A stretch of 475 bases of DNA, from the NCBI RefSeq assembly GCF_003334385.1, contig NZ_QOWN01000178.1, one strand, 5' to 3'. The translations under genes were made by a program, and so were the position numbers. Below are positions 1 through 475 of the stretch, piece after piece. This DNA is from Escherichia coli (GTDB taxonomy: Bacteria > Pseudomonadota > Gammaproteobacteria > Enterobacterales > Enterobacteriaceae). The notes under the pieces were generated by a model. The model did no database searches. It had not been told where the DNA came from and saw only the letters and a list, made by a program, of their open reading frames with translations. Within the stretch, counting starts at the first letter, position 1; each line of letters begins with the position of its first letter.

Positions 1-403
1 ATTCAGACAGGATACCACGTGTCCCGCCCTACTCATCGAGCTCACAGCATGTGCATTTTTGTGTACGGGGCTGTCACCCTGTATCGCGCGCCTTTCCAGA
101 CGCTTCCACTAACACACACACTGATTCAGGCTCTGGGCTGCTCCCCGTTCGCTCGCCGCTACTGGGGGAATCTCGGTTGATTTCTTTTCCTCGGGGTACT
201 TAGATGTTTCAGTTCCCCCGGTTCGCCTCATTAACCTATGGATTCAGTTAATGATAGTGTGTCGAAACACACTGGGTTTCCCCATTCGGAAATCGCCGGT
301 TATAACGGTTCATATCACCTTACCGACGCTTATCGCAGATTAGCACGTCCTTCATCGCCTCTGACTGCCAGGGCATCCACCGTGTACGCTTAGTCGCTTA
401 ACC
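1..403 (-). rRNA. rrl: 23S ribosomal RNA, 5' portion (about nt 1-403 of the mature rRNA, domain I); the gene continues beyond the window start
   Basis: The reverse complement of 403..1 begins GGTTAAGCGACTAAGCGTACACGGTGGATGCCCTGGCAGTCAGAGGCGATGAAGGACGTGCTAATCTGCGATAAGCGTCGGTAAGGTGATATGAACCG..., the canonical 5' end of Enterobacteriaceae 23S rRNA, and continues through GGGGAAACCCAGTGTGTTTCGACACACTATCATTAACTGAATCCATAGGTTAATGAGGCGAACCGGGGGAACTGAAACATCTAAGTACCCCGAGGAAAAGAAATCAACCGAGATTCCCCCAGTAGCGGCGAGCGAACGGGGAGCAGCCC (conserved domain I helices). The mature 5' end maps to window position 403 on the minus strand. The window ends inside the gene, so the feature is partial. Match is from memory of the reference, not an alignment. 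Confidence 0.95.
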
Positions 404-475
404 TCACAACCCGAAGATGTTTCTTACGATTCATCATCGTGTTGCGAAAATTTGAGAGACTCACGAACAACTTTC
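404..475 (-). other. 16S-23S internal transcribed spacer, 3'-terminal part (pre-23S leader), containing the 5' strand of the 23S processing stem
   Basis: Directly upstream of the mature 23S 5' end in the transcript, the minus strand reads GAAAGTTGTTCGTGAGTCTCTCAAATTTTCGCAACACGATGATGAATCGTAAGAAACATCTTCGGGTTGTGA, then GGTTAAGCG. This matches the spacer that precedes 23S in E. coli-type rrn operons. By established knowledge, the bases just upstream of mature 23S pair with sequence downstream of its 3' end to form the RNase III-cleaved processing stem. The exact cleavage site cannot be fixed from this window alone. Confidence 0.8.

Follow-up and report, generated by a model that had tools for sequence, protein, structure and literature searches.

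The question raised by this locus is whether a 475-nt window of Escherichia coli DNA (by window we mean the whole stretch that was analysed) contains anything besides a piece of an rRNA operon. The original prediction was that the 5' domain of the 23S rRNA and the spacer upstream of it, both on the minus strand, would fill it completely, and this is what was found: the bacterial large-subunit rRNA family RF02541 matches from position 403 down to 1, the spacer occupies 404-475 and there is no leftover, which amounts to 85% 23S rRNA gene, 15% spacer and zero remainder (Table 1). The BLASTN search and Rfam covariance search that had been proposed as a check were both run, and they returned an identical enterobacterial 23S match on the minus strand, the rest being upstream spacer.

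Content and layout of the window

When compared by megablast with 5,426 complete E. coli genomes, the window sequence was present in every one of them (5,426/5,426), the median number of places per genome being 7. Many of these matches are 100% identical across all 475 nt and every match is annotated as "23S ribosomal RNA". The search for other kinds of features was uniformly negative. A tRNA/tmRNA scan of the 475 nt gave no hit, a promoter scan of both strands of the window revealed no promoter-like site, and no defence gene, phage gene or mobile element was detected in the window. The composition profile is unremarkable, with a GC content of 47-57%. The terminator scan yielded one terminator-like site (plus strand, 161-177), which lies antisense inside the 23S gene; with 0.3 such sites expected by chance it is not significant, and we have rejected it as a terminator.

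It is virtually certain that the window is a piece of an E. coli rRNA operon, transcribed from the minus strand and comprising the start of the 23S gene and the processed spacer in front of it, and that this is the whole explanation of the sequence. That explanation draws directly on the identity and coordinates of the window, the RNA-type conservation of its 23S part, the complementarity of the operon's flanks and the placement of the StyR-44 3' end at position -8, all described below. The claim that nothing is left over that could host a defence system, a toxin, a mobile element or a novel gene was borne out by the lack of any tRNA, promoter-like site, ORF family match or protein-level constraint in the window. 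Likewise, the sequence deserved its description as an ordinary, highly conserved housekeeping locus, being 100% identical to the rrnE operon of strain K-12 and present in all 5,426 genomes. To this the present analysis adds three refinements: the window is exactly the K-12 rrnE version of the sequence, its spacer piece is catalogued under the name StyR-44, and this same piece is the 5' strand of the predicted RNase III stem. The locus is well described, it does not depart from the textbook E. coli locus and there is nothing novel in it; the window matters only as a negative, in that it can be removed from lists of candidate novel systems.

Table 1. Features of the 475-nt window and the basis on which each was placed
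Feature	Window position	Strand	Basis
23S rRNA gene, nt 1-403 (5' part of domain I)	1..403	-	Rfam RF02541 match; identity to rrlE of MG1655
Final 72 nt of the internal transcribed spacer between tRNA and 23S; part of the pre-rRNA that maturation removes	404..475	-	Comparison with the K-12 locus
Seven precursor nt, GUUGUGA, separating the StyR-44 match from mature 23S	404..410	-	Rfam match and 23S start coordinates
Main 5' strand of the 23S processing stem (predicted)	404..423	-	Co-fold with the 3' flank; extends 23S helix 1 (396-403)
Small variable hairpin ACGAU-GAUGA-AUCGU bulging from the stem (predicted)	426..440	-	Co-fold
Distal stem segments (predicted): UUCGC at 444-448, GUCUCUCA at 452-459	444..459	-	Minimum-energy co-fold
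StyR-44, a spacer-derived RNA fragment: 3' 63 model positions (45-107 of 107)	411..475	-	Rfam RF01830 match
ORF, 53 aa	19..180	+	
ORF, 51 aa	238..393	+	
ORF, 50 aa	51..203	+	
ORF, 40 aa	109..231	-	

The 23S rRNA gene and the operon it matches

An Rfam cmscan with all families, both strands and permissive filters placed RF02541 (LSU_rRNA_bacteria) at window 403..1 on the minus strand with 322.8 bits and an E-value of 1.9e-104; the gathering score of this family is 50, and the window sequence is thus a member of it. This match spans model positions 1-443 of 2925 and on its 3' side ends only where the window ends. The mature 23S 5' end, GGUUAAGCG..., starts at window 403, which is the same base as the RefSeq 23S start in the identical K-12 locus. 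Two published primers for primer extension on the E. coli 23S rRNA (PMC7261194) are found verbatim on the plus strand of the window, at 349-369 and 379-395. Window 403..1 encodes the first 403 nt of the 23S rRNA; in the large-subunit rRNA these form the 5' helices of domain I.

The secondary structure used for the covariation analysis was the Rfam consensus projected on the window, and is therefore independent of the sequences that were aligned. It closes 94 base pairs within the window, 91 of which are standard pairs in the window sequence itself. The alignment comprised 14 gammaproteobacterial sequences, four from E. coli operons and one each from ten other genera (Salmonella, Citrobacter, Klebsiella, Enterobacter, Serratia, Proteus, Providencia, Plesiomonas, Aeromonas and Vibrio). 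Over these 14 sequences standard pairs fill 94.5% of the cells, whereas sliding the partners by 1-3 columns lowers this to 35-44%. Changes on both sides of a pair occur in 41 of the 94 pairs, and for none of the measures was the observed value reached by even one of 500 shuffles. The 23S part evolves as a structured RNA, with the compensatory changes that this entails. Only in one respect does the window differ from the bacterial consensus of RF02541: the helix at model positions 272-305 is missing. The same helix is absent from the 11 other Enterobacterales rows of the alignment, which are 401-403 nt long and comprise three E. coli operons and eight further genera, so that its absence is a trait of the lineage and not an anomaly or the result of a deletion or insertion event.

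With respect to the source operon, the window is 100% identical to rrnE of E. coli K-12 MG1655. Although the window itself is too short to provide any operon context, the identical MG1655 locus has the canonical order of 16S, spacer tRNA, 23S and 5S genes, lying between purH and yjaA (purH - 16S - tRNA-Glu - 23S - 5S - yjaA, or rrsE-gltV-rrlE-rrfE, i.e. rrnE). We fetched the matching stretch from all seven K-12 operons and compared them by pairwise and multiple alignment. Complete identity is confined to rrnE, the other operons differing at 2-10 positions: rrnA and rrnB are 99.6% identical to the window (2 positions), rrnH 99.4% (3) and rrnC 99.2% (4). The operons rrnD and rrnG are both at 97.9%, with 1 substitution plus gaps (an alignment of 475 positions, the loci being 466 nt long as against 475); in the multiple alignment these gaps resolve to a 9-nt deletion in the spacer. 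Only the spacer (window 404..475) varies much between the seven operons. The three rrnC-specific substitutions within the 23S gene all preserve base pairs (GU to AU, UG to UA and GC to GU). Compared with K-12 rrlE (b4009, operon rrnE), all 403 nt of the 23S part are identical, with the same 5' end, strand logic and secondary structure, and the same 16S-tRNA-Glu-23S-5S context in the identical MG1655 locus; no difference was found. By sequence, then, the window corresponds to the rrnE copy of K-12, which does not in itself prove its chromosomal position in the source strain: rrn copies are homogenised by gene conversion and identical copies occur in many strains, so the window alone cannot prove either the operon or the replicon.

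The spacer, its predicted processing stem and StyR-44

The spacer stretch of the window sits, in the identical K-12 locus, between tRNA-Glu (gltV) and rrlE. For the co-fold, one strand was this spacer with the first 8 nt of 23S added, and the other was the final 23S nucleotides with the 3' flank of the same identical locus. For E. coli the two flanks form a continuous helix of about 28 bp that extends helix 1. The energy of this flank duplex is -52.7 kcal/mol, as compared with -28.7 +/- 4.8 for 300 shuffles of the 3' flank, the lowest of which reached -47.0. The Klebsiella flank duplex has an energy of -72.9, vs -30.9 +/- 5.0 for its shuffles, and the same stem architecture. In both co-folds the distal segments UUCGC and GUCUCUCA are predicted to pair with GGCGG and UUGAGAGA of the 3' flank. 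Co-folding thus detects, in two genera, the long flank complementarity that characterises an RNase III processing stem, and on this thermodynamic prediction the window's flank supplies the 5' strand of the classical stem.

The hairpin predicted to bulge from the stem (426-440) is the most variable part of the spacer. In the K-12 alignment it carries the 9-nt deletion of rrnG and rrnD, and in Salmonella houtenae, Klebsiella and Enterobacter this region has 10 nt fewer. The loop and closing bases of the hairpin also vary between operons, with a T in rrnE, an A in rrnA, rrnB and rrnC, and G..C in rrnH; the T that distinguishes rrnE (window 426, RNA-sense strand) adds one A-U pair to the predicted hairpin.

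It has been reported that 23S rRNA cut by RNase III keeps 7 nt of precursor at its 5' end and that the precursor residues of its two ends base-pair with each other; RNase AM takes part in trimming the 5' residues and RNase T matures the 3' end (Jain 2020, PMC7261194). The window shares with this E. coli pre-23S stem both the flank complementarity extending helix 1 and the 7-nt gap that separates the StyR-44 match from mature 23S, as in the published RNase III product; no difference between the two is known. The GUUGUGA at 404..410 would accordingly be the +7 extension that RNase III leaves, and we infer that cleavage takes place at exactly this base. In the scheme that we envisage, the spacer of the primary transcript (475..404) would pair with the sequence following the 23S 3' end to give a long stem prolonging helix 1; RNase III would cut this stem, leaving a pre-23S with 7 extra 5' nucleotides; and the extra residues would then be trimmed, by RNase AM at the 5' end and by RNase T at the 3' end. 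For both the sites of cleavage and the enzymes, this scheme follows the literature. The upstream piece of spacer thereby set free would be what was cloned and catalogued as StyR-44.

StyR-44 (Salmonella Typhi npcRNA 44) resembles the window spacer in its position directly upstream of 23S, with window 411-475 equivalent to model positions 45-107; it differs in that the window includes only 63 of the 107 model positions, the 3' part. The match within the window scores 50.7 bits (E 1.1e-06), which is below the gathering score of 54 because the window edge truncates the family on its 5' side (44 nt are missing). The full-length match in the identical K-12 locus (L001, 5957-6065) has 124.9 bits against the same gathering score. 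A Klebsiella operon and another E. coli operon also have the order tRNA - StyR-44 - 23S, and Chinni et al. 2010 (PMC2943607) describe StyR-44 as lying upstream of 23S in every one of the seven operons. Its 3' end (window 411) falls exactly 7 nt before mature 23S (window 403). Considering that the match ends at the published RNase III cleavage position, we read StyR-44 as an excised processing fragment. The identification of its 3' end with the RNase III site is our own inference, and it fits the caveat of the discoverers that this RNA, processed from longer precursors, is possibly a metastable maturation intermediate (PMC2943607). In the Rfam model the 3' end of StyR-44 forms a hairpin (CGAUGAUG/CAUCUUCG) with bases that, in the pre-rRNA co-fold, are paired with the 23S 3' flank; the two structures share bases, and they would thus be sequential rather than simultaneous.

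At its other end, just upstream of the window, the full StyR-44 match (L001, 5957-6000, RNA sense) begins with CUUUAAAAAUCUGG, preceded by UUUGCU. This start resembles the boxA antitermination element of the spacer (GCUCUUUAA...); if it is that element, the fragment would start inside boxA.

Alternative readings, and copies filed under other names

The fact that StyR-44 has its own Rfam family and is counted among the sRNAs in transcriptome papers could be taken to mean that it (window 411-475 plus the 44 nt upstream) acts as a regulatory small RNA in its own right, with targets of its own, something beyond a by-product of processing. It was, moreover, cloned as a discrete, growth-regulated 109-nt species with a northern signal in both S. 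Typhi and E. coli (PMC2943607). However, growth-rate regulation is to be expected of any fragment derived from an rrn operon, the 3' end lies at the RNase III cut, 7 nt upstream of mature 23S, and the 3' part is the 5' strand of the predicted processing stem, which alone accounts for its conservation. Nor does the window have a promoter-like site, and the discoverers themselves report its processing from longer precursors and allow for a metastable maturation intermediate (PMC2943607). The support for a regulatory role is limited to the published northern signal (PMC2943607), and we consider such a role improbable. A more specific version of it, in which StyR-44 acts in trans, its abundance reporting the rate of rRNA synthesis and the differences in the variable hairpin giving operon-specific regulatory outputs, is slightly less probable still. 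The processing fragment remains the reading that we prefer for the spacer, just as a plain rRNA gene does for the rest of the window, where one of the short ORFs (e.g. 19-180, 238-393, 51-203 or 109-231) might otherwise be a real small protein gene located in, or opposite to, the rRNA gene. There are indeed eight ORFs of 21-53 aa in the window (cut-off at least 20 aa), and neither Salmonella nor Klebsiella interrupts the three longest of them, but this is expected anyway of a sequence so strongly conserved. Against NCBIfam, PADLOC and PHROGs the eight ORFs gave zero matches at E-values up to 1; neither strand has a promoter-like site, and RefSeq annotates no CDS at the identical K-12 locus. 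When conservation and codon changes were compared with Salmonella, Klebsiella and Enterobacter, the changed codons proved to be overwhelmingly non-synonymous (synonymous/non-synonymous counts of 0/5, 3/11 and 4/10 for ORF 19-180, and of 0/6 and 2/8 for ORF 238-393), and the substitutions concerned preserve the base pairs of the rRNA. Several of the ORFs are disrupted in other genera by stops, indels or the loss of their start codon: 238-393, 251-343 and 248-313 are frameshifted in Enterobacter, and 390-470 is broken by indels or stops in all three genera. The three-genus comparison thus gives no coding signal and no protein-level constraint for these ORFs, and a hidden protein gene is hardly credible.

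Just as hard to credit is an origin of the window from an rRNA operon carried by a mobile or extrachromosomal element (a plasmid or a phage) instead of the chromosome. The databases do contain identical or near-identical copies in 72 plasmid-labelled and 16 phage-labelled records, among them two E. coli "plasmids" of 93,760 bp with a 100% match. Nevertheless, of the 37,999 places at which the sequence occurs in complete E. coli genomes 37,989 are chromosomal, and only ten are on plasmid-labelled replicons. One of the plasmid-labelled records, pF524-3, holds chromosomal genes only, being the rrnC-rrnA interval joined via one rrn operon; several other "plasmid" records are 4-5 Mb long, which is the size of a chromosome; and the "phage" records that were examined are UNVERIFIED contigs of 5-6 kb with nothing but 16S-tRNA-23S. 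We have therefore rejected the plasmid- and phage-labelled copies as mobile elements: all of the records inspected are a mislabelled chromosome, a chromosomal fragment or a contamination with host rRNA.

The copy number of the window sequence varies widely among the complete E. coli genomes, from 1 to 19 per genome around the median of 7 in the megablast search; the extremes may reflect engineered rrn-deletion strains, amplifications or assembly artefacts. A further side observation concerns annotation. In Salmonella houtenae AGRM01000003.1 (L010, 1-106) a CDS for a "hypothetical protein", SEHO0A_03482, has been annotated within the tRNA-23S spacer; it ends 2 nt before the 23S gene and corresponds to about 404-475 of the window plus sequence upstream. 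The call, which covers the region of StyR-44 and the processing stem, is almost certainly spurious. There is consequently a case for masking rRNA operons in scans of this kind: short ORFs arise in them, and at least one public record has a "hypothetical protein" annotated within the spacer. Copies of the region also surface as false "phage" and "plasmid" records.

The two 93,760-bp "plasmids", NZ_OY843411.1 (59407-77881 = L009, with the window match at locus 9001-9475) and NZ_OY757140.1, are from hen isolates. Their gene order, fadAB-pepQ-yigZ-trkH-hemG, then a 5.8-kb stretch without listed genes, then hdfR-maoP-yifB-ilv, is purely chromosomal. The 5.8-kb stretch holds the window match and was taken to be one rrn operon, PLSDB listing no RNA genes. 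These records are the K-12 rrnC-rrnA interval (about 93.7 kb), circularised through a single hybrid rrn operon, which suggests either an excision circle or a collapsed tandem duplication produced by rrn-rrn recombination, and not a true plasmid.

Among the phage-filed records, PQ800148.1 (L011, 5687 bp) and OR844775.1 (L013, 5386 bp) were scanned and contain a complete 16S, a tRNA, StyR-44 and 23S, and nothing else; holding only an rRNA operon, they are a contamination of the phage collection with host DNA. Further short UNVERIFIED records filed as phages, likewise host rRNA operons, are OR850364.1, OR845267.1, OR850889.1 and PV358070.1. One phage-filed record is labelled as a "Staphylococcus phage", and it has a 97.3% match to this enterobacterial sequence.
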